Assembly: GCA_041738395.1 (NCBI GenBank)
Contig: JBGSPW010000227.1
Location: 45,320 to 77,319 of the forward strand
Reading direction: 5' to 3'
DNA length: 32,000 bases
From: Thermoflexales bacterium
GTDB taxonomy: Bacteria; Chloroflexota; Anaerolineae; Fen-1058
The position numbers and the translations under genes were made by a program. Every line of letters starts with the position of its first letter. Position 1 is the stretch's first letter. The notes under the pieces were generated by a model that worked only from the letters and a program-made list of their open reading frames with translations, did no database searches and was not told the DNA's origin. Shown here in pieces: positions 19,924 to 32,000 of this stretch.

Positions 19924-20062
19924 ATACTCACTTTCCGATCGGCCAAAAGGGGGTTTTCAGCGTGCCTGAATTCACGTTCAATTCAAGTGCGGCACTGTAC
20001 ATAAGTATTCGCTGCGCTGGAATACGCCAAAAACTCACATTCAGCGAGCGGAAAATGAGTAT
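19924..20062. repeat. Imperfect 18-bp inverted repeats bracketing a low-GC 139-bp spacer at the core/island junction
   Basis: atactcactttccgatcg (19924-19941) matches the reverse complement of cgagcggaaaatgagtat (20045-20062) at 16/18. The right arm abuts and overlaps the stop codon (20062-20064) of the RCK-RyR gene. Confidence 0.4.
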
Positions 20063-21834
20063 CAAGGAACTCGTCCGCTAACACCATTCTCTTGCGGAAT
20101 GATCTGGTAACCGGCTCGACTCAGAAAAGATGGAATGCCGCGGACTGCCGTACGGTTTTTCTCTCTTTCGGCCTCGGGCAGCGCATCCCAGTCCACCAGG
20201 TGGGGATGGGTTCGAGCGGCTAGATCTTTCGGGCCAAGGGCGTAGCGCCAACCGTCGTTCTGCCTGTCCTGGCACCACAGCTGGTGTTCCAGCTGGGCCA
20301 TGCGCTCCAGCTCAGCCAGGGAGAATTCAAGCGCCGGTGAATCCCAACCGATCAGCGGGACCAGAGTATATCCGCCCTCTTTCAAGACCTGATTGATATG
20401 GTCTACCCATTGGTAATTCGCTTTCCGATACTGTTCGTCCAGCTGTGCCCAGGGTTGCATTGAAGGATCAGACGGCACAGCAGTGCCCGTTTTCATCTGC
20501 TGCTGAACATATTCTTCGTGAGCCGCCCGGGCGAGGACATCGTGGGTGGTATCGTTCAGCAGGTCGGGCGTACAGGTGTGATCGAGATACCCGAAAGCGT
20601 ACAGATTCTGGTAGGTTCCCCGGTCATTTTTTCGGTCCCCCAATAGCCGCGCCAGCCCGCTTTGTTCGGCCATGCGGATCACGATCGGAATGCCGCTGTT
20701 TGGCCGCTGGCGCAACAGAACCAATCCGGCATGTAAGCCAAGTGAGTCATTGTCCACACAGATATAAACGTGATCGATCCCCCGTTTGCCTGGAGCCGGG
20801 GAGAGATATGCGCCACTTTCAAACTCGGGAGAATGGATTTCTATCTGGTGCGGAATCAACTCACAGGCCTGTGCCAACTGTGGGTAGCGAATATAGAGCG
20901 ACTCGACCTTTCGCAGCGCGTAACGATCGATGATCGTCACTTGTAAACGACTGGACTTATCCGGTCGTTGGTCCCACCAACTCCGCGCCGTGTGTAACAC
21001 CAGACTTTCGCCCATGCGTCCGAGTCCCACCACCAACAGATGGGGAACAACCCCGGTCTGGACCAACTCATCGCGCCAGGCCGGATGTTCCTGCAACAAC
21101 CGACGCGCCCCACGCTCAAACACATTGAACAGCTCCAGCCGGAAAGGTCCCCCTTCCAAGGTCGCTTCCTGCTCACGCAGTAGCGCACACAGCTGAGGAT
21201 CAGAGACGTGAATCAAACACGGCAACGGCTCAACCCGGCGGTCTCGCACTATCGCCTGGACACTGAGCGCAATTTCGATGTTAAGGCCATCGTTGTCGCA
21301 CACCGCAAACAGGCCGCGCGCACGCTTGACGCCAGCCCGCAACAACAAGGCGGAGGTGGTCGCATCGCCCGGCAGGACAAACAGCCCTAGCGCGTGACAG
21401 GCAGCGATCCAACTGTTCTTCTCATCGCGCTCGATCACCACGACCCTGGCGCCTTTCTTCCGAAACTGCTGGGCCAGCAGAAAGCCCTTGCGGCTGAGAC
21501 CGCAGATGATGATGTGCCCGCGCAGGCGGCGCAGCCGGGCCGCGTCGATCTGCTGGCGAAACAAATCCAGCAGGACTTTCACCACCGCCAGGCCGGTCAG
21601 GAAGGGAACGGCGAAGCGGGCCAGGTTCAGTTCCAGCGGCAGGGGCGGCGTGACCGCGCCAGAATTCATCGGGATCAATTGCAGGGTCAGATAAAACGAA
21701 TCGGCCAGCGAATAGGGCAGCTGATTCCAGGTGGCATACCGGGTAAAGCCCACCAGCCCGGCGGTCAGGGCCAGCATCCAGAGAATCCCTAGGCCGAGCC
21801 ATTGGTATTTTTGCCAGATCTTTAACTTGTGCAT
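20062..21834 (-). CDS. Membrane protein: 2-TM channel-like N-terminus + tandem RCK/TrkA-N Rossmann domains + two C-terminal RyR (ryanodine-receptor) domains
   Basis: 590 aa. The TM helices are WLGLGILWMLALTAGLVGF and FAVPFLTGLAVVKVLLDLF, with a re-entrant-like segment between them (SFYLTLQLIPMNSG, no TVGYG). The Rossmann motifs are HIIICGLSRKGFLLAQQF..VVVIERDE and HLLVVGLGRMGESL. RyR-type repeats occupy the last 160 aa (about 20065-20544): LARAAHEEYV...GGYTLV and AQLEHQLWCQDRQNDGWRYALGPKDLAARTHPHLVDWDALPEAEREKNRTAVRGIPSFLSRAGYQI. Confidence 0.75.
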   Translation of the reverse strand: MHKLKIWQKYQWLGLGILWMLALTAGLVGFTRYATWNQLPYSLADSFYLTLQLIPMNSGAVTPPLPLELNLARFAVPFLTGLAVVKVLLDLFRQQIDAARLRRLRGHIIICGLSRKGFLLAQQFRKKGARVVVIERDEKNSWIAACHALGLFVLPGDATTSALLLRAGVKRARGLFAVCDNDGLNIEIALSVQAIVRDRRVEPLPCLIHVSDPQLCALLREQEATLEGGPFRLELFNVFERGARRLLQEHPAWRDELVQTGVVPHLLVVGLGRMGESLVLHTARSWWDQRPDKSSRLQVTIIDRYALRKVESLYIRYPQLAQACELIPHQIEIHSPEFESGAYLSPAPGKRGIDHVYICVDNDSLGLHAGLVLLRQRPNSGIPIVIRMAEQSGLARLLGDRKNDRGTYQNLYAFGYLDHTCTPDLLNDTTHDVLARAAHEEYVQQQMKTGTAVPSDPSMQPWAQLDEQYRKANYQWVDHINQVLKEGGYTLVPLIGWDSPALEFSLAELERMAQLEHQLWCQDRQNDGWRYALGPKDLAARTHPHLVDWDALPEAEREKNRTAVRGIPSFLSRAGYQIIPQENGVSGRVP

Positions 21835-21889
21835 GCGACGATTTTAGACTCCTTGCCAGGCGGCGTTCAGCCGTTAGTGTGAGAATAGC

Positions 21890-22180
21890 ATGATATACGC
21901 CGCTGTCGAGCGAGAAATGCTATCCTCCGCGCGTGAATTGGAATTCGTGCATGTGCGGATTTCCCCGCACCGGCCCTGTACCAATGGCATCGTCGAGCGC
22001 CTGGTCCGCACCGTGAAAGAGTGGCTCGAAACCCACTCGTGGAGCAGCCCCGAAGACTTGCAGGCGTTGCTGGCCGAGTTCATCACGGACTATAACGACC
22101 GCCCACATCAAGGGGCCGAACTGGACGGATTGTCTCCCAACGAGCTCGCCCGGCGGCTCGCTGGCTGTTCAACATGTTAG
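21890..22180 (+). pseudogene. Truncated DDE (rve-type, IS481/IS3-like) transposase remnant, C-terminal part only
   Basis: The 96-aa ORF contains ..HRPCTNGIVERLVRTVKEWL..FITDYNDRPHQG.., which is the last catalytic-Glu region of the integrase core. The upstream D,D part is missing because the fragment begins 55 nt from the RCK-RyR gene start. I did not identify terminal inverted repeats. Confidence 0.7.
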
Positions 22181-22709
22181 CGAACAATACAATAATCGAT
22201 CAGTTGTTGCAGCACCCACTGCTGGATGGCCGCAAATTATCCCCAGGCAACAGTGGTAGCACCCTCATTGTGTTGGGTGTCGGTCTTATCGCTACGTTGC
22301 TCGTCGTATTGGCTTATGGTCTCAGCTTGCTGTACACACGCCTTTTGCCGTTCGACATCGGCCAGGCGACACTGTTCGCACTGAGCGCCATCATCGCGGT
22401 GACGGCGCTCGTTTGGCGCTGCGCTCACCTTCCACGTCGGTCTGGATGAATCTGGCCGTGCCACGATCGAGCTCGTTGACCAGGCGTGCTATAGCGTCCT
22501 GTCCGGCACGTTGATTGATCTCGGCCATCACGGCGCGCACCAATCGCTTATTTGTGCTTCAGGGTCTCAAGAAGTCGCTGGGCGGTTGTCTCTCATTCCG
22601 ATCAAGAACGAGTCGTGCTTAAGTGTCGCGGGCATATCTGTTGCCTCTTTAGCATAGTTTAAGATCTCTCAAGGTCCGTTTGCCCTTGTGCTTTGTCGGC
22701 CTCTGCTCA

Positions 22710-25700
22710 CTACTTGCTTTCTGGCAATGCTTCGCACGTTTTCCGATACGGCTCATTCCCAAGATACTGCTTCCATTCCGCTCGCGTCAGGTTGCGATTG
22801 GCAATGCGGCATGCGCTTGCTAGCCACGATCTAATATCAAGATCCCACAAGATGACGGCATAAAAATTGGCTGAGGAAGCCAGCCATCTGCCATCAGGGC
22901 TAAAGGCAATGCTGCCTACACCAACCTGACCAAAGAGTGGCGTGGTGAACTGAGCAGGAGATTTGTGATCAGAGATATCCCATAGCGCAATGGCCCCATA
23001 GTCATCCCCACGCGAAGCCAAAGTCTTGCCGTCAGGGCTGAGTGCAATGGGAGCACTGCCGGCAAGCGCCACGCCGAGTTGGACCGGCAACGTCGGTGTA
23101 GAAATATCGTATAAAAGAATGTCGTTGCCGGCTACCAAAATCAATGTCTTGCCGTCGGGGCTCAACAGGATATCAACCAGCGGTCCCTTCAATCCAGATA
23201 GCGACGCATTGAGATACGGGGGATCGGAAATCTTCCACAATTGAACTTTGCTTTGGTTACAGACCATGCCGAAGTCAGCGCACCCACCCACGACTAATAA
23301 CTTACCATCAGGACCAAAGGCGACCTTTGATAATCCGAGTGTATTACTGGAAATCGGCGCACCCAGTTGGATGGGTGATTCAGGGTCGGAAACATCCCAT
23401 AGAACTAGATTGCTAAATGTGGCGAAGTTCATTGTATTCCACCACACCAGTGTCCTCCCGTCCGGACTGAATACAACTTCTGGCCAATCGCCACCGTTGG
23501 GTATCGTGACAGAAAATGGCGTACCAAGTTGAATCGGAGTTCGAGGATTAGAAACATCCCATAGGACTATGACAGCCACTTTTCCGCGTCTGCTCCATGC
23601 CAATATTTTTCTATTGGGGTCTAGAACAATGCTGTCACCGTGTTCAACCCTGAGAGGTTCTTTAGAAAGCAATATATCAAGCTGGACAGGAGTCTGGGAA
23701 TTAGAGACATCCCGGAGGACGATGGCGTTGTCTTTGACGCTCAATGCCAATATCTCGCCATTGGAGCCAAAAGTTATCTTGGAGTCAGAAGGGAGTTCGC
23801 CAACGAGAACGGGCAAGCGAAGGACAGAAACGTCCCACAGGTTTATATGGGCCGTGCTGCCTGACACCAATGTCTTGCCGTCGGGACTGAAAGCAAGATC
23901 TCCTACACGCTCTTCGGGACCGAAAACATGTACAACAGACGAAATAGACAAAGGTGACCGGTAATCGGAAATGTCCAACAAAGCAACGGTGTAGTTGCCG
24001 CCGCCTAAGGCTAGCATCTTCCGACCAGGACTGAAAGCCGCGCCTCCAAAGCCTGAAGGGCCGGAAATTGTTGCACCAAGTCGGGCAGGCGATTTGGGAT
24101 TGGAAATGTTCCACTTGGCAAGAGTGCCGTCACCCCCCACAAGTAATGTCTTACCATCAGTAGCAAAGGCAACAGTTACCACAGGAAATGTATGGGAGAG
24201 TGGGCTGCCGATCGGGATAGGCAAACCGGGGTCGGAGGTATCCCACAGGATAACCGATTTGTCACTACTTCCAGAGGCCAGAATTTTTCCATTGGGACTA
24301 AAGGCAACGCTCGTCACAGCAGCTGCATGTCCAGAAAGGGTGGTGCCGAGAAGAGCTGGTAACACAGGACGAGAAACGTCCCATAAACGAATTTCACCTG
24401 AGCGAGGTTCGTTAGGGCTACCTCCTTCATCAGCTTTTCCTCCGCTGCCAGAGGCCAGCAGCTTGCCATCCGGGCTGAAAGCAACACTTTCTACTGGAGC
24501 AGAATGACCGGTGAGTGGCGCGCCGAGAAGAACCGGCGAAGAAAGATTAGAGACATCCCACAGATAGGTTTGGCCTAGCTTAGGGAAACGAGAGAGATCG
24601 AGTTTCACATTACCGCCTGCGGCCAACAATCTTCCGTCAGGGCTGAAGGCAACATCATAAACCGGTCCAGGAGGGCCGGAAAGTGGTTCACCCAAAGGCT
24701 GGCGACTGACAATATCCCACAACTGAACCTCTCCTTGAGAACAATAGTATTTAACAAAATTTACTGCACACCCTCCTGAAGCCAATGTTCTACCATCGGG
24801 GCTAAAAACAAGGCTATAGACACCGGCTTTATGGCCTGCGAGTGGTGGGGCAAGCTGAACGGGCAACGATGGATTGGAAATATCCCATAGATAGATCTTG
24901 CCCTGGGCACAGCCACCCGCTTGATCATCAAACTCGCTGCAAATGCCCATTGCCAGCATCTTTTCATCGGGACTGAAAGCGAGACCGGACACCTCAAGTC
25001 GCTGCGACGTTCGCTCCGACGCGCTGGATGCGGGAGAGCGCAGAAAGGTTACAAGACGTGGGCTATGCTGTAAGGCGGCCAGCAAACTGCTGCGCGCCTC
25101 GATGGTATCCATCATTCGGTAGGCTTCCGCGCCCAACAGCAAAGCCAAGTCAAGTTCTTTGTCCAAATGCGAAATCGCTTGCACTGATAGTTGGCGAGAG
25201 AGCGCAGTTTTGGCTTGTCGCTGGGCTTCATCGCGTTGTTCCACAGCCCGAGTGCTGGCGGCTTGAGCTGTGGAGGCATTTTGATTTGCGCGAATGGCAT
25301 TCTGGTTGGATTGCAATCCAAAGAAAACCGCAATCATAGCGGCGAGAAGCGCCGCTGCGCCAGCAGCGGTGATAATTCGGTTGCGCGTGCGCAGACGCCT
25401 GGCCGACTGCTGTTGCTCCTGGAGTTTTTCGGCGGCTTCACGGTCAGCTTCCTGCCGGCTGGTCAGCACATACTGACGCTGTAATGGCGTGGGTTGGGGA
25501 GTTCTTTCCACATCGATTCCGGCCAAGCGCTGCTCCGCCTCCAGCAAATCGGTGCCACGCAAAAGAAAACTGGCGTCTCGTGTCTTTTTCTCCCACTCTA
25601 CTGCACGCATCTGCAGCCGGGTATGCACTTTAGTCCATTCCAAGTCGGTCTGAATGGCGACGAGCAGGGTGTCAAACGCCTTCTGATAATCATCCTGCTG

Positions 25701-26036
25701 CTCGCGGAAGAAAATCCAATTGAGCCGGGTGACTGTTTCGGGCGCGGCGCGCGGTTCCACTTCCCGCGGCACAATGGGGATGAGGCGCTTGCCATTCTGT
25801 GCAGCGTGGGCAATCTCTTTGCTGCAAATTTCCGAGCTAATCGAATCGGGGCTGACGACGAACACAAAGGTATTGGCCTGCTCGATGGCCGTATAGACTT
25901 CGGCCAGCCAGTCGGCGCTGGGGGGAATATCCTGCCAGTCAATCCAGGTGTCCAGTTGGCGCTCTTGGAGCAACTGGTGCAAAACGCGGGCAAAGGCAAT
26001 ATCTTTACGAGAGTAGGAGATAAAAACGTCGCTCAT
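22710..26036 (-). CDS. TIR domain / single TM helix / WD40 beta-propeller repeat protein (about 15 blades)
   Basis: 1108 aa. The N-terminal TIR is MSDVFISYSRKD..TFVFVVSPDSISSEICSKEIAHA (Glu74 codon at 25815-25817). A conserved helical module follows (HTRLQMRAVEWEKKTRDASFLLRG..). A basic stretch RRLRTRNR precedes the TM segment IITAAGAAALLAAMIAVFFGL (about 25311-25376). Repeated AFSPDGK/R.LASG..(I/V).LWD blades follow. I found no P-loop. Confidence 0.9.
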   Translation of the reverse strand: MSDVFISYSRKDIAFARVLHQLLQERQLDTWIDWQDIPPSADWLAEVYTAIEQANTFVFVVSPDSISSEICSKEIAHAAQNGKRLIPIVPREVEPRAAPETVTRLNWIFFREQQDDYQKAFDTLLVAIQTDLEWTKVHTRLQMRAVEWEKKTRDASFLLRGTDLLEAEQRLAGIDVERTPQPTPLQRQYVLTSRQEADREAAEKLQEQQQSARRLRTRNRIITAAGAAALLAAMIAVFFGLQSNQNAIRANQNASTAQAASTRAVEQRDEAQRQAKTALSRQLSVQAISHLDKELDLALLLGAEAYRMMDTIEARSSLLAALQHSPRLVTFLRSPASSASERTSQRLEVSGLAFSPDEKMLAMGICSEFDDQAGGCAQGKIYLWDISNPSLPVQLAPPLAGHKAGVYSLVFSPDGRTLASGGCAVNFVKYYCSQGEVQLWDIVSRQPLGEPLSGPPGPVYDVAFSPDGRLLAAGGNVKLDLSRFPKLGQTYLWDVSNLSSPVLLGAPLTGHSAPVESVAFSPDGKLLASGSGGKADEGGSPNEPRSGEIRLWDVSRPVLPALLGTTLSGHAAAVTSVAFSPNGKILASGSSDKSVILWDTSDPGLPIPIGSPLSHTFPVVTVAFATDGKTLLVGGDGTLAKWNISNPKSPARLGATISGPSGFGGAAFSPGRKMLALGGGNYTVALLDISDYRSPLSISSVVHVFGPEERVGDLAFSPDGKTLVSGSTAHINLWDVSVLRLPVLVGELPSDSKITFGSNGEILALSVKDNAIVLRDVSNSQTPVQLDILLSKEPLRVEHGDSIVLDPNRKILAWSRRGKVAVIVLWDVSNPRTPIQLGTPFSVTIPNGGDWPEVVFSPDGRTLVWWNTMNFATFSNLVLWDVSDPESPIQLGAPISSNTLGLSKVAFGPDGKLLVVGGCADFGMVCNQSKVQLWKISDPPYLNASLSGLKGPLVDILLSPDGKTLILVAGNDILLYDISTPTLPVQLGVALAGSAPIALSPDGKTLASRGDDYGAIALWDISDHKSPAQFTTPLFGQVGVGSIAFSPDGRWLASSANFYAVILWDLDIRSWLASACRIANRNLTRAEWKQYLGNEPYRKTCEALPESK

Positions 26037-26154
26037 ATGGTGATTTTCTCGCTATTTTTGCGGCGAATGGCTTATTTCTGGAGCGCAATGCGCTCCAATG
26101 TCGAAATGACGAACATACGGAAAATGCGGGATGTTTGGGCCAGAACAACCTCTC

Positions 26155-29100
26155 CTATTGAGCCAGCTGGCACGTGGCGTGGTAAACTGCCTGATCGAAA
26201 TAGAGGGACCATTCTTCCTGGGTGAAATTGCGGTTGGCAATCTGACAGACGCGGGTCAGCCAATCTTGCGGGTCCAGGGACCACACAGTCATTTTGCTAA
26301 TCTCAGAGGTATACAGAAACCGGCTGTCGGGGCTGAAGCCCAAGACTGTGACGCTGGAGTCTGGGTTGCGGATGGGCTGGCCGACAGGTTGCCGTTTTTG
26401 AACGTCCCACAAGGTAATCAGACCGACCCCGCAGCCTGAGCCGTTGCCACTATCGCAGCCGACGCTGACCGAATAGCGCCCATCCGGGCTTCTGAGCCAT
26501 GCAACGGTCAGAGTGTTCATCAGCGGATCGGGCTGCCCGCTCTCGATATCCCACCAGATGTCTTGCTGTTTGAGAGACAGGTAGGTGCTAATGCCGATCT
26601 TTTTCCCGTCGGGGCTGAATTCCAGCAGTTTGACACTCCCGTTCGTGGAGCCATCAAACGGCTTGCCGATCGTTTTGCCGGTCTCCATATCGTACATTTC
26701 GATCCGATAAGTCTGGCAGCTTTGAACTCCCTTGATGCATCCGGCGGCAGCCAGGGTTTTCCCGTCCGGACTGAAGGCCAGCGTGATGAACCCCGGGTCG
26801 AGAGTCATCGATATCTGGTGGACAACCTGGCCGATGGCTGGATCCCAGACCAGGAAAGTCCCATGTGGTCCGTCACTGACCATCCAACGGTCATCCGGGC
26901 TGAACTTCAGATTCAGTGCCCACCCGTCGATCATAACCGGCGCGCCAATCGACTGTCGGGTGGCAACGTCCAGGAAATGCATCCGGGTGGATTGGACGTT
27001 GCCGATTAGCTCTGTGTAGACCAGAACCTTACCGGAGTGGCTGAGGAAAATACGGGAAATATCGACATCCGGTGCGGTCATGAAAGGCTGCCCGGCCGGT
27101 TTGTTTTTCTCGACATCCCAAACAACGATATCTTTCGTGGAAGCAGCGACAACAATTGGTTCTTGCGGGGCAGCGGGGTCAAAGCCAACCTGCCAGTAGC
27201 TCCACGGCGAGGGATCGCTGTTGTTGAAAACTTTCGCCACCGGCTGCCAGGAAAACAGGTTCCACAGGTAGATCTGACTTTCTTTGCAGTCCATATAGAG
27301 CCCGGCTACAGCGCATGAGCTGCTGGCTAAGAAACGGCCATCCGGGCTGATGGCCAGCGCATTGACGAATCGGGTTGTTTGGTAAGGCTCCAGAGTGAAG
27401 GCGTCCCTGGAATTCGTAGCGGAGTGAATCGCAAGTGGAGATCCGAAACTAAGGCTGGCCAAAATCTGGTCGCTACCCGACCGGCTGAAGAGCAGGCTGT
27501 CAATCTCTGATTTCTGCGTGTAGGAGGCTGCCTGCTTCCAGTTTGCCACGTTAATGATGTGGACGATCCCCGCCGCCTCCCCAGCAGCCAGCAGCTCGCC
27601 ATCGGCGCTCACGTCGACCGAGACGATCGCGCTGGTTGTGCCTTCAATCGGATGCGCCTGCATGCTTCCATCCGGCAGGTTCCAGGTTTTTACTTCTCCC
27701 TTCTGACAAAAATCCATTTTGGATTTACCAGTTCCTTGGGTTCGCAGGCCGGCACAGTCGCCGGCGTACAGACGGTCACTCTGCGGACTGAAGGCCAGGT
27801 TATGCATCTGCGTTCCCACCCCTTTAAGTGCCACCCCAGGTGGGTTAGCGATGCTCAAATCCCAAAGAACGATTCCTCCCGTGTCGCACAACCCGCCAGG
27901 CATGGAAAACCCATGGCACCCACCACTGGCCATGTATTTCCCGTCCGGGCTGATGGCCACCATTCCGCTGCTGTTGGCGAAAGCCGGCAGAGGAATGGGG
28001 GCCGGCTGGCCTCCTGCAGATAGATCGAAGCGATAAATCCGATCTCCGGCGATGGCAGCAAACAGAGCCGACCCATCCGGGGTAAAAGCCAACCCGGTCG
28101 GCCGGCCTCCGCCGGCAGCCAGGACCCGGCCCATCTGCCCGCTGGCAAAGTCGTAGAAGACGATCTTATTTTGCAGGCAGGCATCATGCTTCTCATCGCG
28201 CTGGGCGCATCCCGCCACCGCAATCCACTTTCCATCCGGCGAAAAGGCCAGTGCAGTGATTTGCTCCGGATAGCGGTCGATGCGTGCCAGTTGAGGACTC
28301 TGCTCCAGTGCCAGGAGCAAACTACTGCGAGCGTGATAGGTATCGGCAGCCAGGTACGATTCGGCAGCCAGGAGCATCGCCAGGTCAAGATGATGAGTCA
28401 ACTGGGTCTGGGACTGGGTCGACAGCTGGCCAGACAGGGCTATCTTCGCCTGGCGTTGAGCCTCGTTGCGCTGTTCCACGGCCAGTGTGCTGGCGGCCTC
28501 GGCGGTAGCCCGCTGGTTGATCGCATTGGCCTCGGCCGTGGCGCGAGTGAATGATTCGGCCACGGCTGTCGAGCGGGCATAGGACTCGGCCAGGGCATTG
28601 GCCTGTGCCAGATTGCTTTGAACCAGGGCGACAATTGCTAGCGCCACAGCAATCACAAATCCGATCGTCACCGCACCGAGCGTGATACGCTGACGCCGGT
28701 CGGCATCCCGACGGCCGGCTAGCAGGTACTGCTTTTGCAGAGTGGTGGGCTGGGGTTCTTTTTGCCCGGTGGCCTGCGCCAGCCAAGTCTCGGCGTCGCG
28801 CAATTCCCGCCCACGCAGCAGAATGCTGGAGTCACCCTGTTTATTTTCCCATTCCAGGGCGCGCACCTGGAGGCGGGTGTGGACTTTCACCCAGGCCAGG
28901 TCGGTCTGAATGGCAGTCAGCAGTTTATCGAAGGGCTGCTGGAAGTCGGATTCTTGCGGTGAAACGTTCTCGCGTGCGGGGAAGAAGATCCAGTTTAGGG
29001 CTGCAATATCGGGCAGCAGTTCTTCAGACTTGATCTCCGGGTGGATAACAATAGGGACTAGCCGCTTGTGGTTATCGATGGCGTGCTGCACCTCTTTGCT

Positions 29101-29313
29101 GCACACTTCTGAGTTCTTGGAATTGTGGCTGACGATATATACAAAAGTATCTGCCGCTTCGATGGCGTGGTAAATCTCGCTGAGCCAATCAGCTGAAGGG
29201 GGGATGTCCTCCCAGTCGATCCAGGTTTCAAGGTTTCTAGCTTTAAGGGCATCGACCAGGATGTGAGCAAAGGCCACATCTTTGCGGGAGTAGGAGATAA
29301 AAACGTCGCTCAT
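26155..29313 (-). CDS. TIR domain / single TM helix / divergent WD40-like beta-propeller repeat protein (about 14 blades), paralog of 22710..26036
   Basis: 1052 aa. The TIR is MSDVFISYSRKDVAFAHIL..NSEVCSKEVQHA (Glu74 codon at 29092-29094). It is about 60/90 identical to the downstream paralog over the first 90 aa by hand alignment. The TM segment is ITLGAVTIGFVIAVALAIVALV (about 28618-28686). The start overlaps the stop of the upstream gene (ATGA at 29310-29313). Confidence 0.9.
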   Translation of the reverse strand: MSDVFISYSRKDVAFAHILVDALKARNLETWIDWEDIPPSADWLSEIYHAIEAADTFVYIVSHNSKNSEVCSKEVQHAIDNHKRLVPIVIHPEIKSEELLPDIAALNWIFFPARENVSPQESDFQQPFDKLLTAIQTDLAWVKVHTRLQVRALEWENKQGDSSILLRGRELRDAETWLAQATGQKEPQPTTLQKQYLLAGRRDADRRQRITLGAVTIGFVIAVALAIVALVQSNLAQANALAESYARSTAVAESFTRATAEANAINQRATAEAASTLAVEQRNEAQRQAKIALSGQLSTQSQTQLTHHLDLAMLLAAESYLAADTYHARSSLLLALEQSPQLARIDRYPEQITALAFSPDGKWIAVAGCAQRDEKHDACLQNKIVFYDFASGQMGRVLAAGGGRPTGLAFTPDGSALFAAIAGDRIYRFDLSAGGQPAPIPLPAFANSSGMVAISPDGKYMASGGCHGFSMPGGLCDTGGIVLWDLSIANPPGVALKGVGTQMHNLAFSPQSDRLYAGDCAGLRTQGTGKSKMDFCQKGEVKTWNLPDGSMQAHPIEGTTSAIVSVDVSADGELLAAGEAAGIVHIINVANWKQAASYTQKSEIDSLLFSRSGSDQILASLSFGSPLAIHSATNSRDAFTLEPYQTTRFVNALAISPDGRFLASSSCAVAGLYMDCKESQIYLWNLFSWQPVAKVFNNSDPSPWSYWQVGFDPAAPQEPIVVAASTKDIVVWDVEKNKPAGQPFMTAPDVDISRIFLSHSGKVLVYTELIGNVQSTRMHFLDVATRQSIGAPVMIDGWALNLKFSPDDRWMVSDGPHGTFLVWDPAIGQVVHQISMTLDPGFITLAFSPDGKTLAAAGCIKGVQSCQTYRIEMYDMETGKTIGKPFDGSTNGSVKLLEFSPDGKKIGISTYLSLKQQDIWWDIESGQPDPLMNTLTVAWLRSPDGRYSVSVGCDSGNGSGCGVGLITLWDVQKRQPVGQPIRNPDSSVTVLGFSPDSRFLYTSEISKMTVWSLDPQDWLTRVCQIANRNFTQEEWSLYFDQAVYHATCQLAQ

Positions 29314-29903
29314 AGGGTAACTTTCTCGCTATTTTGGCGGCGTGGTTTTTCTGCCGGAAAATTCTCGTAGGTCACACTGGCCTGGATTGGCGCCGATGCA
29401 CTCGCCTCCACCACGCTGGGTTGATAGTTTGGGGCATAGACCCAGGCGATCGGCAAGCCCCGCTGACGCGCCTCTAAAACTATTTGCCCGGTGCCGCCCT
29501 GGCCTCTTGGCGGCTGGCCATCCCAAAGCGCAACGAGCACATCCACCTGATCGAGCATGTAACGCCCGGCGAATTCATAGGCCGCAACGCGCGTTGAACT
29601 GACTGGAAGTTCGATTACCCTGTCAGCGCGCGTCAATAGATCCAGGAATTCCAGCCTTGAATCTTTAGAGAAATCGGTCAAATACTCTTCTTTCTTCAAG
29701 GGGAGCGGCACGACCAGGCGGGTCTCGATCACTTCGAAGGCGCGTTGAACAACCAGTCGGTCCGCGCCGTCCGCCAACGAACTGTAGAGGCGGAATGGCC
29801 CGGCGAACCTCGCCTGGATTTTTTCCAGCACATTATCGACCTGGCGAATAAGCCGGTTCAGGTCGTATAAAACGCGGTGGCCTGTCACGCCGATGTTTGT
29901 CAT
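29310..29903 (-). CDS. Stand-alone SLOG-superfamily (DprA/LOG/YpsA-like Rossmannoid) protein
   Basis: 197 aa with GGTGG upstream of the ATG at 29901-29903. SLOG-like motifs are IGVTGHR at the N-terminus, SLADGADRLVVQ (the GxD glycine-rich loop), and VLVALWDGQPPRGQGGTGQIVLEARQRGLPIAWV (comparable to LOG PGGxGT and DUF2493/YspA patterns). That it is coding is secure; the family call rests on motifs only. Confidence 0.6.
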   Translation of the reverse strand: MTNIGVTGHRVLYDLNRLIRQVDNVLEKIQARFAGPFRLYSSLADGADRLVVQRAFEVIETRLVVPLPLKKEEYLTDFSKDSRLEFLDLLTRADRVIELPVSSTRVAAYEFAGRYMLDQVDVLVALWDGQPPRGQGGTGQIVLEARQRGLPIAWVYAPNYQPSVVEASASAPIQASVTYENFPAEKPRRQNSEKVTL

Positions 29904-29970
29904 CCGCCCACCTTACAAGATTTTTTCAGAAGTGCGATTGTATTGGCGCGTATTCGGTCGTCGGTTAGAA

Positions 29971-32000
29971 TTAGCCTTTGTCAGATCTCGCAATGGCGTA
30001 CCCCGCCCTGGCCAGGATCTCCGGGATGCCGCGCACCAGGTCACGGTCCTTCACCTTCTCTTCTTCAGGCAGCTGCTCCCAGGAGACAAGACATGTGTGT
30101 ATCTTTTTGGCCGCATCAGTTTCGGAGGCATAGACCCAGCCGTCATCGAGTTTGGATTGCATCCAACGTTCGTGTTCCGCCTTCGCCAGCGTCTCCATGG
30201 GTTCACCGGGGAAGTTAAAGGGTGGTTCGTTGCTGCGCGCCGGGATCATGATATAGCCGGCCGCCGCCAGTTTGGCCGGGATATCACGCACGTATAGCCG
30301 GTTCTGCTCCTTCAGGAAGTCGGGCAGCTCCGCATACGAGACGAGGGCCATGTGGGTCTTGAGCGCCTCGTCGGTCTTGGAGCCATACTGGTAGCCGCGT
30401 TTTTTCAGCCCCTCGCAAAAAATCGTGTGATTAGCCTCGGCCAGATCTTCGAGCATCTGCCCTTCCAATTCAACTTGCTGGACCAGGGAGAGGAAGCGTT
30501 TGCCGTCCACGTGCAGGTCGAGCTGCGATTCGGACGGCAGGCAGGAGCGCTCAAAGGCGGTCTTGCCGGTTAACTGGCTCATGGCGAACAGCGACTCGAT
30601 CGAACGCGCGCCATGCCTGTATTGCCCAATCTTCAGCAGGGCGCGCAGCACCCCGCGGTCGATGTTGAGCCATTCCTGCCCGCCGCGTTTCTCGAACAGT
30701 TGAGGCGTGCCGCGCTTCAGGCACGATCGTAACAGGATCGCCCGGCGGATGATAAAGTACGGGTCTTCGCTGTTTCCCTTGACCGGGTTGGGCCCCAGGA
30801 CGTTGATGTAACCCTTGAGGCGGCTGACGAAATCGGGCCCTTTGGCCGACTTGAAGTTCTTGTCGATCCCCTTGTCGAATTCCGCCATGCTGCTACTGGT
30901 CCCGCCGGCGAAGACGAAAATCGAGCGACCGATCGGGTGGTTGATCTGGCCTTCCTGGAATTTACCATCCTGCATGGGAGCCAGGAAGTAGCGCAACCAG
31001 CCGAGCGGCATTTCGCCCAGAGAGGTGTCGAACTCATCCCAGAATACCAGCGGGATCTTGCCACTCAGGCCGACGTCGCGCACTTGGTGGAGGGCAGACA
31101 ATAAACCATCGACGGAATCGAACTGGGACAGGTTGAAAGTGATCGGTTCGATCTGGCCGGGCAGGAGGGATTTGGCCATCTCGGTGACACCGAAGGACTT
31201 GCCTGACCCGGGCGTGCCGAACACCGCGATCGAAAGCGGACGCGTCACCTGCTTTTGTCCGGCATACTCGGCGACCAGGTTGCGGATGCTGCGGTAGCTT
31301 TCGATCTCCTGGCGGTCGACCGTCAGCAGGTTGCCGAACTGTCCCCAGGGCACTCCTTGCAGAGCCACTTCCGGTCCTTCCAAGACGACCTGCATGGCGA
31401 CCTGATCCAGCCCTCCCTTAAATTTGTCTTGCAGGATCGTCCAGAAGCCTTCCGTCAGCGGTTTCTCGGCCGGTTCCCCGGTTTGATGGATGAAGCGCAT
31501 CGGATCCTGGATTGGGGCGACTGTGAACTGTTTCGTCGGCTGGGCCAGAGCGGCCGCGACCTTGACGATGGGGAAAACGAGTTTGGCCTGCGAGGCAGGC
31601 GTGCCCCGTTCACCGTAGCCCTCCAAGTGCAGAATTCGCATGGCCGCCAGGCCAGACTGGATCCCAGACTGGATATCGGGCTGATCGGGCGAGACCATCA
31701 GCTGGCGGGCGATTCCGGCCGTCAGGCAGGTGGTGTAGCCGATCATCCTGCCGGGATAGTCCTTCTCCCACATGTGCTCGATGCCTTTCGGATCGAAGAA
31801 TAGAGAACACTGGAAGGTGGGCTGGTCTTTTCCTTCCTGCCGCGACAGGAGGATCGCCCCGGCAGGCCCAAAGGAAATGATCACGTGGGCGCAGTGCGAA
31901 AGCGAGTTGATACACGGGTTATGCACTAGCTCCCAGAAGACGTCCTGAGCGGTGCGTTCCCAGGAGAGTTCCCGGCTGATCTGGACTTCGCTCAAGCGCA
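29971..32000 (-). CDS. AAA+ ATPase with two C-terminal RyR domains and an N-terminal domain of unknown (possibly degenerate PfkB-like) fold; 5' end probably beyond the window
   Basis: The stop is TAA at 29971-29973. Walker A is GTPGSGKS (31195-31218, checked against the DNA). Walker B is IPLVFWDEFD and sensor-1-like is IFVFAGGTS. The two RyR repeats are in the last 161 aa (about 29974-30456): AEANHTIFCEGLKKRGYQYGSKTDEALKTHMALVSYAELPDFLKEQNRLYVRDIPAKLAAAGYIMI and AKAEHERWMQSKLDDGWVYASETDAAKKIHTCLVSWEQLPEEEKVKDRDLVRGIPEILARAGYAIA. The only in-window start candidate is TTG at 31993-31995, and the frame stays open to the edge. Confidence 0.8.
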   Translation of the reverse strand, partial: RLSEVQISRELSWERTAQDVFWELVHNPCINSLSHCAHVIISFGPAGAILLSRQEGKDQPTFQCSLFFDPKGIEHMWEKDYPGRMIGYTTCLTAGIARQLMVSPDQPDIQSGIQSGLAAMRILHLEGYGERGTPASQAKLVFPIVKVAAALAQPTKQFTVAPIQDPMRFIHQTGEPAEKPLTEGFWTILQDKFKGGLDQVAMQVVLEGPEVALQGVPWGQFGNLLTVDRQEIESYRSIRNLVAEYAGQKQVTRPLSIAVFGTPGSGKSFGVTEMAKSLLPGQIEPITFNLSQFDSVDGLLSALHQVRDVGLSGKIPLVFWDEFDTSLGEMPLGWLRYFLAPMQDGKFQEGQINHPIGRSIFVFAGGTSSSMAEFDKGIDKNFKSAKGPDFVSRLKGYINVLGPNPVKGNSEDPYFIIRRAILLRSCLKRGTPQLFEKRGGQEWLNIDRGVLRALLKIGQYRHGARSIESLFAMSQLTGKTAFERSCLPSESQLDLHVDGKRFLSLVQQVELEGQMLEDLAEANHTIFCEGLKKRGYQYGSKTDEALKTHMALVSYAELPDFLKEQNRLYVRDIPAKLAAAGYIMIPARSNEPPFNFPGEPMETLAKAEHERWMQSKLDDGWVYASETDAAKKIHTCLVSWEQLPEEEKVKDRDLVRGIPEILARAGYAIARSDKG

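Follow-up and report, generated by a model that had tools for sequence, protein, structure and literature searches.

Two neighbouring genes encoding the proteins that we call A and B lie on the minus strand of a 32,000-nucleotide stretch of DNA from a Thermoflexales bacterium (assembly GCA_041738395.1, contig JBGSPW010000227.1, positions 45,320-77,319 of the forward strand; hereafter the window, whose numbering is used throughout). In both proteins, an N-terminal TIR domain is joined through a helical region and one hydrophobic helix to a long C-terminal array of WD40 beta-propeller blades (Table 1). Here, we describe the architecture of A and B, the evidence on their membrane topology and paired cysteines, and the gene cassette in which they stand.

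Searching Pfam with both proteins returned TIR_2 (PF13676) at the N-terminus (residues 4-125 of A, E 5e-26, 92.0 bits; residues 4-114 of B, 88.0 bits; cut-off 28) and WD40 or other beta-propeller families across the C-terminal two thirds (WD40 E 4e-55 in A and 2e-20 in B), while no NTPase domain was found in either and residues 120-340 of A, comprising the cytoplasmic helical module and the stalk, matched no Pfam family. For comparison, we collected the best 120 homologues of A in a public collection, in which A itself is identical to entry P0001; these came mostly from metagenome-assembled genomes (MAGs) of Anaerolineales and other Chloroflexota, together with some filamentous cyanobacteria, Marithrix and one actinobacterial MAG. 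Sixty sequences were aligned (alignment A2), and an AlphaFold model of A was computed with 60 homologues as input. The model, with a mean predicted local distance difference test score (pLDDT) of 86, contains a confident TIR fold, helices at residues 132-150, 161-172 and 184-235 in the cytoplasmic region, and beta-strands over residues 328-1065, and we counted about 15 blades in A and about 14 in B. As the first-pass annotation of this DNA had noted, a signal peptide is absent from both; the TIR fold begins at residue 3. H138, W148 and L164 of the cytoplasmic helical region of A are invariant in A2, and the motif DLALLL..EA....DT...R..LL of the stalk and propeller N-cap is conserved in the A2 consensus. 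At the C-terminal end of the model, C1076 lies on the two terminal helices and C1101 in the tail. Among structures in the PDB, those closest to the model by Foldseek were tandem propellers with seven blades each, namely Nostoc 2ymu (E 3e-33), Aip1 and full-length Apaf-1; with the full model, Foldseek thus returned only generic tandem propellers, which are uninformative on topology. An earlier estimate of about 800 residues of propeller outside the cell held for the post-helix region as a whole (869 residues in A, 821 in B), and not for the propeller itself, which takes up about 740 residues beside about 90 residues of helical stalk and cap.

Table 1. Features of proteins A and B and of the surrounding cassette, in window coordinates.
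Feature	Coordinates	Strand	Basis
Protein A, 1108 aa, intact open reading frame (ORF): TIR, juxtamembrane helices, one transmembrane helix, stalk, tandem WD40 propellers, C-terminal cap	22710..26036	-	ORF, Pfam, AlphaFold
A, TIR domain, aa 1-130, with conserved C71 and invariant E74	25647..26036	-	Pfam TIR_2, A2 alignment
A, conserved cytoplasmic helical region, aa 131-220, basic end SARRLRTRNR	25377..25646	-	AlphaFold, A2 alignment
A, predicted single transmembrane helix, aa 221-239	25320..25376	-	hydropathy, AlphaFold
A, helical stalk, aa 244-289, and helical propeller N-cap, aa 295-324	25056..25319	-	AlphaFold, pLDDT 75-97
A, about 15 WD40 blades as tandem propellers, aa 328-1065	22842..25055	-	blade segmentation, AlphaFold strands, PDB match 2ymu
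A, Cys-bracketed B-C loop 1, C366-C376	24909..24941	-	both Cys in 17/60 homologues
A, Cys-bracketed B-C loop 2, C423-C432	24741..24770	-	both Cys in 2/60 homologues
A, Cys-bracketed B-C loop 3, C919-C926	23259..23282	-	both Cys in 17/60 homologues
A, C-terminal cap, aa 1066-1108, invariant pair C1076/C1101	22713..22841	-	motif conservation, two helices in model
Protein B, 1052 aa, intact ORF: same architecture as A, about 14 blades, six Cys-bracketed loops and cap pair	26155..29313	-	ORF, Pfam, hydropathy, blade segmentation
B, TIR domain	28939..29313	-	Pfam TIR_2 E 9e-25
B, predicted single transmembrane helix, aa 213-231	28621..28677	-	Kyte-Doolittle 2.76; K+R 5 before, 0 after
B, predicted extracytoplasmic region	26158..28620	-	hydropathy, blade segmentation, cysteine pairs
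B, Cys pairs 369/379, 466/476, 520/536, 667/676, 859/866, 953/961; cap pair 1023/1048	within 26158..28620	-	blade segmentation, A2 columns
Stand-alone SLOG-fold protein, 197 aa; stop overlaps B start by 4 nt	29310..29903	-	AlphaFold, Foldseek
P-loop ATPase with C-terminal tandem RyR domains; N-terminus cut by window end, 883 aa in full contig	29971..32000	-	Pfam RyR E 3e-24
Transposase integrase-core fragment rve_3, between TIR genes and RCK-RyR gene	21890..22180	+	Pfam E 2.5e-12
Membrane protein: two N-terminal hydrophobic helices, RCK/TrkA_N, C-terminal RyR	20062..21834	-	TrkA_N E 2e-17, RyR E 1e-15

Hydropathy, computed on the Kyte-Doolittle scale in 19-residue windows, singled out one segment in each protein, IITAAGAAALLAAMIAVFF in A (mean 2.43) and GAVTIGFVIAVALAIVALV in B (mean 2.76), and no other window in A or B exceeded 1.5. 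Counting Lys and Arg in the 15 residues on either side, we found five before the helix in both proteins, against one after it in A and none in B; the single hydrophobic helix following a strongly basic stretch (SARRLRTRNR in A, RRDADRRQR in B) that had been read from the sequence earlier was thereby confirmed. An equivalent helix stands at residues ~200-210 in 119 of the 120 homologues, with a mean of 4.61 Lys and Arg before and 1.90 after it, and an excess before the helix in 115 of these 119. In the model of A, the basic stretch and the hydrophobic segment belong to a single long helix (residues 184-235) with no packing partner, and the pLDDT falls to 47-66 precisely over residues 220-250. 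Because the confidence drops exactly across it, we regard the hydrophobic segment as unpacked, and we rejected the idea of a buried soluble helix: the segment is unpacked, modelled at low confidence and conserved whatever the flanking domains.

The same arrangement was found in a much wider set of proteins that share the C-terminal cap. Using a cap profile of 43 columns (W..aC..a.RNlT..EW..Y....Y..TC), we searched 1.84 billion proteins and obtained matches in 14,459 representative clusters, of which we inspected the top 150. One strong hydrophobic helix precedes the propellers in 24 of the 25 proteins among these 150 that are full-length, and the positive-inside charge bias is present in all 28 of the helix-bearing cap relatives of at least 700 residues. 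Past the cap, relatives carry extensions, often joined through Pro/Thr-rich linkers, that match FGE-sulfatase (E 1e-65), ricin B lectin (3e-33), LysM (1e-7) and PPC (2e-4) domains; the LysM and ricin relatives are fragments, so that a helix in the same protein is not confirmable for these. LysM, ricin lectin and PPC domains are typically extracytoplasmic. One relative, P0027, has a second hydrophobic helix past its cap, followed by KSKKNSKGRIK; this tail is basic and therefore presumably cytoplasmic, in which case the propellers, flanked by the two helices, would lie across the membrane from it. Taken together, hydropathy, charge bias, AlphaFold confidence and the additional domains and second helix of relatives support the topology proposed in the first-pass annotation, and we consider it highly probable that A and B are oriented with the N-terminus inside and the C-terminus outside, the propellers thus facing away from the cytoplasm.

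The N-terminal regions of the helix-bearing cap relatives, which we assigned by eye from sequence motifs, resemble TIR, trypsin-like, caspase-like, STAND/AAA or KGGVGR-type NTPase domains. In P0144, P0146, P0176, P0181, P0186, P0188, P0215, P0216, P0222, P0229, P0261 and P0265, a single hydrophobic helix stands between the WD40 repeats and an N-terminal region of the STAND/AAA, trypsin-like, caspase-like or KGGVGR type. By its predicted position, this helix would put the NTPase switch and the WD40 repeat sensor of such relatives on opposite sides of the membrane, an arrangement unexpected for NLR-like proteins. Separately, a TPR-like tail recurs past the cap in P0041, P0062, P0065, P0083, P0096-P0098, P0101, P0171, P0249, P0250 and P0259; this tail is marked by a further conserved pair of Cys (..CW.GSL.G.A..V...C..AV, spacing 16) and by a motif DSRGLARAL.GD..GAI.DF, and in Pfam it gives only a weak match to TPR_9.

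The cysteines of the post-helix region are organised in pairs. All nine Cys-bracketed loops quoted in the first-pass annotation, as well as both C-terminal motifs, were found verbatim. After the helix, A contains eight Cys that form four close pairs and B contains 14 that form seven, while before the helix each has C71 alone; upon placing the Cys at random, the observed pairing was reached in 106 of 100,000 trials for A and in 24 of 100,000 for B. Within the blade, every loop pair falls at a single place, the turn that links strand B to strand C, where ordinary blades have GSxDxT. Scoring this B-C loop in 1245 blades from 121 family members, we counted 1100 loops without Cys, 22 with one, 121 with two and two with three; independent placement at the same density would give about 218 one-Cys and about 24 two-Cys loops. 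We compared this with a control set, consisting of the 103 hits of a synthetic consensus WD40 query that lack a hydrophobic helix, in which the corresponding counts were 524, 34, 10 and 2, single-Cys loops thus outnumbering two-Cys loops in a trend opposite to that of the family. The few stapled loops of the control belong to N-terminally truncated fragments, two of them with Ig-like surface domains by eye. Two-Cys loops are also longer (median 18 residues versus 8) and follow the pattern [GSA]-C-x(6-12)-C-x-[QG]-G-[EKT]-[IV]-x-L-W-[DN], with freely variable sequence between the two Cys. Of the 715 post-helix Cys of the family, 624 are closely paired.

Whether these pairs are conserved depends on which pair is considered. 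All 60 sequences of A2 have both Cys of the cap pair, and the cap motif is matched by 110 of the 120 homologues, so that the expected conservation was borne out there. It was not borne out for the individual loop pairs, which are not positionally conserved and occur each in 2-17 of the 60 homologues, though they are gained and lost as pairs: in the paired Cys columns of A2 the two Cys are equally frequent (17/17, 2/2, 17/17, 12/12, 4/4 and 4/4) save for one column pair (6/3). Such gain and loss as units is the behaviour expected of disulfide partners, or else of a blade type that spreads by duplication. The idea that the paired Cys mark disulfide-stapled domains outside the cell thus fared differently for its two parts: strict pairing and rarity in generic WD40 proteins speak for the loop pairs, while the cap pair fails as a marker of export. 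We rejected the cap pair as independent evidence of export, as P0219, a helix-less relative of TIR-NTPase-WD40-cap architecture, retains it; P0219 has no stapled loops, which, as a single example, fits the notion that loop staples accompany export. We also rejected a four-Cys metal site built from two loops, since the number of pairs varies from 0 to 6 per protein and the pairs lie in separate blades. Overall, we lean, if only narrowly, towards the view that the Cys pairs form disulfide staples.

The TIR domains retain a glutamate of the catalytic type. This residue, E74, is invariant in A2 (60/60), and 59 of the 60 aligned proteins have C71; E74 aligns with the Glu of the WCWDE motif in Cat1, a filament-forming NADase (PDB 9mud), and C71, the single cytoplasmic Cys, is accounted for as the conserved Cys of this WCWDE-type motif. 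With the catalytic Glu kept, the TIR domain of A and B more probably consumes NAD+ as an enzyme than serves as an adaptor. PADLOC models of ThsB match the TIR domain (E 2e-10 and 9e-10), and the NCBIfam model of the type III Thoeris protein ThcB4 does so at 33 bits against a cut-off of 220. In several TIR systems, namely SARM1, plant TNLs, TIR-SAVED, TIR-STING and Cat1, it is the self-association of TIR domains that forms the active site.

A and B themselves are paralogues with 32-34% identity, and tandem TIR paralogue pairs like them also occur at two of the related loci that we fetched (L008 and L022); the two proteins may sense different cues or form a heteromer. The spacer between their genes (26037-26154) holds a perfect 7-bp inverted repeat, GGAGCGC-ATT-GCGCTCC on the coding strand, with no T-run after it, which could act as an RNA hairpin between the paralogues.

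The genes around A and B form a cassette, all of it on the minus strand, that runs from the RyR ATPase through a 67-nucleotide gap, the 197-residue gene, the overlap with the start of B, B itself and a 118-nucleotide gap to A; downstream of A follow the rve_3 transposase fragment and then the RCK-RyR membrane protein. The 197-residue protein had no match in Pfam (up to E 5), NCBIfam, PADLOC or the sequences of the PDB. AlphaFold gave a confident Rossmannoid of the SLOG type (pLDDT 92), for which Foldseek returned YpsA (2nx2, E 1.6e-8, TM-score 0.64-0.70), ShosA, DprA and LOG, as well as the SLOG domain of ThsA with 3' cyclic ADP-ribose (3'cADPR; 7uxs, E 5e-4). It has about 786 homologues with the conserved motifs GVTGHR, GADR and GGTG, and, judged from its modelled fold, it appears to be a SLOG family for which no sequence model exists. 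SLOG binds 3'cADPR in ThsA of type I Thoeris (PDB 7uxs; preprint 10.64898/2025.12.03.692087), and phage proteins with an RyR domain (PF02026) bind or cleave 2'/3'cADPR (2026 preprint, PMC13232231). In the RCK-RyR protein, hydrophobic helices lie at residues 13 and 71, and their arrangement around the segment SLADSFYLTLQLIPMNSG within residues 1-100 recalls the pore helix of a two-helix K+ channel upstream of an RCK domain; its N-terminus contains no GYG filter and matches no Pfam ion-channel model.

Upon inspecting related loci, we found that this association recurs. Genes with RyR domains flank genes for proteins composed of TIR, transmembrane (TM) helix and WD40 repeats (TIR-TM-WD40) in 5 of 16 related loci (L002, L007, L008, L014 and L016), and an RCK-RyR gene adjoins them in L002, L007, L008 and L016. 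Of eight contexts viewed from the SLOG gene, six have a RyR protein of about 900 residues directly upstream, five include a TIR gene and five a TrkA_N or RyR gene. Members of the cassette recur in L002, L007, L008, L016, L018, L019, L020, L022 and L025, which represent independent metagenomes and MAGs, while the TIR partner varies from TM-WD40 proteins (this window and L002) to a cytoplasmic 517-residue TIR protein (L018) and tandem TIR proteins (L022). The latter (L022:2734-5290; 409 and 418 residues) have a hydrophobic helix at residue ~164 and a C-terminal domain of about 230 residues that contains Cys; we take them for another type of membrane-anchored TIR sensor within this system, unrelated to that of A and B. 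A conserved cassette of AAA-RyR, SLOG, TIR and RCK-RyR genes points to nucleotide signalling downstream of TIR rather than to a stand-alone receptor. By analogy, the most economical interpretation would be a Thoeris-like module in which the TIR proteins serve as sensors and signal makers and the SLOG and RyR proteins as receivers and effectors. We found no description of a linkage between host TIR and RyR genes in the open-access literature that we searched.

The cassette (20001-30000) has a G+C content of 0.50-0.57, lower than the value of about 0.60 for the housekeeping genes of the window, and, together with the transposase fragment, this suggests that the cassette may be an acquired island. 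The rve_3 fragment and an ORF of 91 residues with two or three hydrophobic helices together take up 21890-22449 (plus strand), between A and the RCK-RyR gene. The rest of the window is housekeeping in character, with glycosidases, an aminotransferase, a shikimate dehydrogenase and a LytR-LysM protein. At 39-2582 on the minus strand, an 847-residue protein has as its sole Pfam match two YscW-like stretches near the C-terminus (E 2e-45); YscW-like denotes a lipoprotein chaperone of type III secretion, an odd annotation for a Chloroflexota-like genome.

Overall, we regard it as probable that A and B are membrane-anchored TIR receptors with an outward propeller sensor whose signal is read by the SLOG and RyR partners, a scheme of which we infer the sidedness, the disulfides, the cue, the TIR catalysis and the link from signal to effector. 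In this scheme, the enlarged B-C loops would sit on the usual ligand-binding face of WD40 propellers, with the Cys pair at the loop base probably acting as a disulfide staple. A ligand outside the cell, or a change in the envelope, would shift the spacing or oligomeric state of the ectodomains; this would change how far apart the transmembrane and juxtamembrane helices stand and draw the cytoplasmic TIR domains together, which would then turn NAD+ into a signal derived from ADP-ribose (ADPR). The SLOG protein and the RyR domains of the P-loop ATPase and of the membrane RCK protein would read this signal, and the output might be ion leak or growth arrest through the ATPase or the membrane protein. 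A more specific version, in which stapled, diversifying ectodomains sense phage contact, wall damage or the lysis of a neighbour as an outside-in immune pathway, cluster the TIR domains and make a product that gates the RyR effectors and SLOG, strikes us as rather unlikely.

Several observations weigh against the receptor scheme. About half of the fetched TIR-TM-WD40 loci have no RyR or SLOG neighbour within 10 kb, which indicates that this family can work without the cassette, and no PADLOC model matches the RyR and SLOG partner genes. Since the helix-less P0219 keeps the cap pair, this pair needs no oxidising compartment and is no evidence for a location outside. The number of post-helix Cys is odd in 47 of 116 relatives (even in 69), and 22 family loops have a single Cys. 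In the model of A, the hairpin of loop 1 is extended (strands 360-370 and 375-385), so that C366 and C376 may not oppose each other, and none of 91 blades had a stapled loop in those control WD40 proteins that carry a signal peptide. Finally, most relatives come from MAGs of Anaerolineales, and cultured Anaerolineales are mostly anaerobes.

Some of these same points can be read as signs that the whole protein is cytoplasmic or peripheral, the hydrophobic segment being a membrane-dipping or oligomerisation helix, the Cys being reduced structural, redox or metal sites, and the cues being sensed inside the cell. In P0219, the stalk motif, propellers and cap pair are the same and directly follow a STAND NTPase, from which it follows that the stalk-propeller-cap module can fold in the cytoplasm; odd Cys counts occur in 40% of relatives; and all characterised bacterial TIR sensors are intracellular (10.64898/2025.12.03.692087; PMC13232231). 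However, a 19-residue uncharged stretch with a hydropathy of 2.4-2.8 and asymmetric Arg flanks, conserved in 119 of 120 homologues and unpacked in the AlphaFold model, is hard to reconcile with such a location, as are the LysM, ricin lectin and PPC extensions, the second helix and Lys-rich tail of P0027, and the stapled loops, which are absent from P0219 and rare in generic WD40 proteins; we consider this explanation very improbable. If instead the predicted topology holds, the ectodomain might be structural or adhesive, contacting the wall, the sheath or a neighbouring cell of the filament, with a constitutive TIR domain or one that serves as a scaffold and with Cys pairs that merely steady long loops. 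WD40 propellers do serve widely as platforms for interaction, LysM and ricin lectin domains that bind wall or glycan occur in relatives, the family is found chiefly in filamentous groups (such as Anaerolineales, filamentous cyanobacteria and Marithrix), and no ligand is known. Yet the catalytic Glu is invariant, the same ectodomain is fused to death-type effectors (proteases, NTPases and TIR) in a pattern typical of conflict systems that can be triggered, both the sequence and the position of the loops are hypervariable in a manner resembling diversifying recognition, and the genes accompany signal-binding SLOG and RyR partners, all of which makes a purely structural role improbable in our view.

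The cassette, too, can be explained differently, with A and B as stand-alone NAD+-depleting suicide effectors in the manner of SARM1 or TIR-STING and the SLOG and RyR genes as a separate system that shares the defence island. The related loci that have neither RyR nor SLOG neighbours, about half of the total, would accord with this, as would the transposase fragment between A and the RCK-RyR gene and an island G+C content below that of the surroundings. We nevertheless find it distinctly improbable, as the SLOG gene and the start of B share 4 nucleotides on the same strand, and the order AAA-RyR, SLOG, TIR is found again in unrelated samples whose TIR partners differ.

Among known systems, the closest to the receptor-and-cassette arrangement is Thoeris. 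The TIR domains here have the catalytic Glu and match the ThsB and ThcB4 models at the level of the domain, and a SLOG-fold protein is co-encoded with TIR, as Thoeris types I and III use SLOG domains. Type III Thoeris loci contain several TIR genes, as does the cassette (10.64898/2025.12.03.692087). By contrast, the TIR proteins of the window are single-pass with about 800 residues predicted outside, whereas known ThsB is cytoplasmic; the SLOG protein stands alone, without SIR2 or another killing domain; and a RyR ATPase and an RCK-RyR membrane protein are added. The match to ThcB4 reaches 33 bits against a cut-off of 220, and no ThsA model of PADLOC matches. With regard to the RyR domains, the neighbours of A and B carry PF02026 (E 1e-15 to 3e-24), the domain of phage RyDEP, and RyDEP-type domains bind or cleave the 2'/3'cADPR made by TIR proteins (PMC13232231), but the RyR domains here are host-encoded, linked to TIR genes and fused to a P-loop ATPase or a membrane RCK protein, which makes them putative receivers rather than anti-defence sponges or enzymes.

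The likeness to Toll-like receptors (TLRs) that had been drawn for A and B stands as a formal and functional one: both are single-pass, with an ectodomain built of repeats and a cytoplasmic TIR domain, and the apposition of TIR domains driven by the ectodomain is what we propose here. An evolutionary likeness was not upheld. A and B have an N-terminal TIR domain and a signal-anchor, whereas TLRs have a signal peptide and a C-terminal TIR domain; WD40 propellers take the place of the leucine-rich repeat (LRR) solenoid; and the TIR domain is probably an enzyme rather than an adaptor scaffold. TIR domains of TLRs in the PDB gave weak sequence matches (E 1e-4 to 8e-3), and we saw no sign of shared descent of the whole architecture, in which the domain order is reversed and both LRR and signal peptide are missing. 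We thus rejected membership in the animal TLRs, on the grounds of the WD40 ectodomain, the absent signal peptide and the N-terminal TIR domain, and likewise membership in the STAND/NLR proteins, as A and B have no NTPase, though some relatives do. A bacterial parallel in layout is PknD of Mycobacterium tuberculosis, a kinase with a transmembrane helix and an extracytoplasmic NHL propeller sensor, whose activation is thought to be based on dimerisation. Kinases of this type share the N-terminal cytoplasmic enzyme, the one helix and the outside propeller with A and B, which differ in their TIR output, two WD40 propellers, Cys-bracketed loops and conserved C-terminal cap.

Conflict proteins of multicellular bacteria with an effector-STAND-WD40 layout have been described by Kaur et al. 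(eLife 2020, 2021; PMC7159879, PMC8195603). They resemble the present family in their bias towards filamentous bacteria, their N-terminal TIR, caspase or trypsin effectors and their WD40 repeats as presumed sensor, and they differ from A and B, which have no NTPase and have a membrane helix between effector and WD40. A text search of the same two papers found neither this topology nor the Cys-paired loops nor the cap, and the same was true of a text search of surveys of prokaryotic WD40 proteins and metacaspases. A 2012 metacaspase survey does use an 'inside-helix-outside' notation for some architectures, so that single-pass effector-sensor proteins are not new as an idea. In the open-access literature that we searched, we found no description of the TIR-TM-WD40 topology or of Cys-bracketed WD40 loops, an absence that is no proof.

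To our knowledge, every bacterial TIR, Thoeris or NLR-like sensor characterised so far recognises invaders intracellularly. If our reading of A and B is true, bacteria would also own surface pattern-recognition receptors wired to TIR chemistry, and the more than 14,000 cap-bearing clusters, with a repeat sensor apparently outside and a death or signalling domain inside, would apparently make up a very large and undescribed class of outward propeller sensors coupled to such domains. This would open to testing how a signal passes across the membrane to a TIR enzyme and what filamentous bacteria perceive in their envelope. The cassette in turn offers candidate host receivers of TIR products, in the form of RyR domains and a stand-alone SLOG protein, and the linkage of host RyR and TIR genes is relevant to how cADPR-RyR signalling arose in animals. 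If true, the system would represent a prokaryotic counterpart both of surface sensing of the TLR type and of the link between cADPR and the ryanodine receptor in animals.

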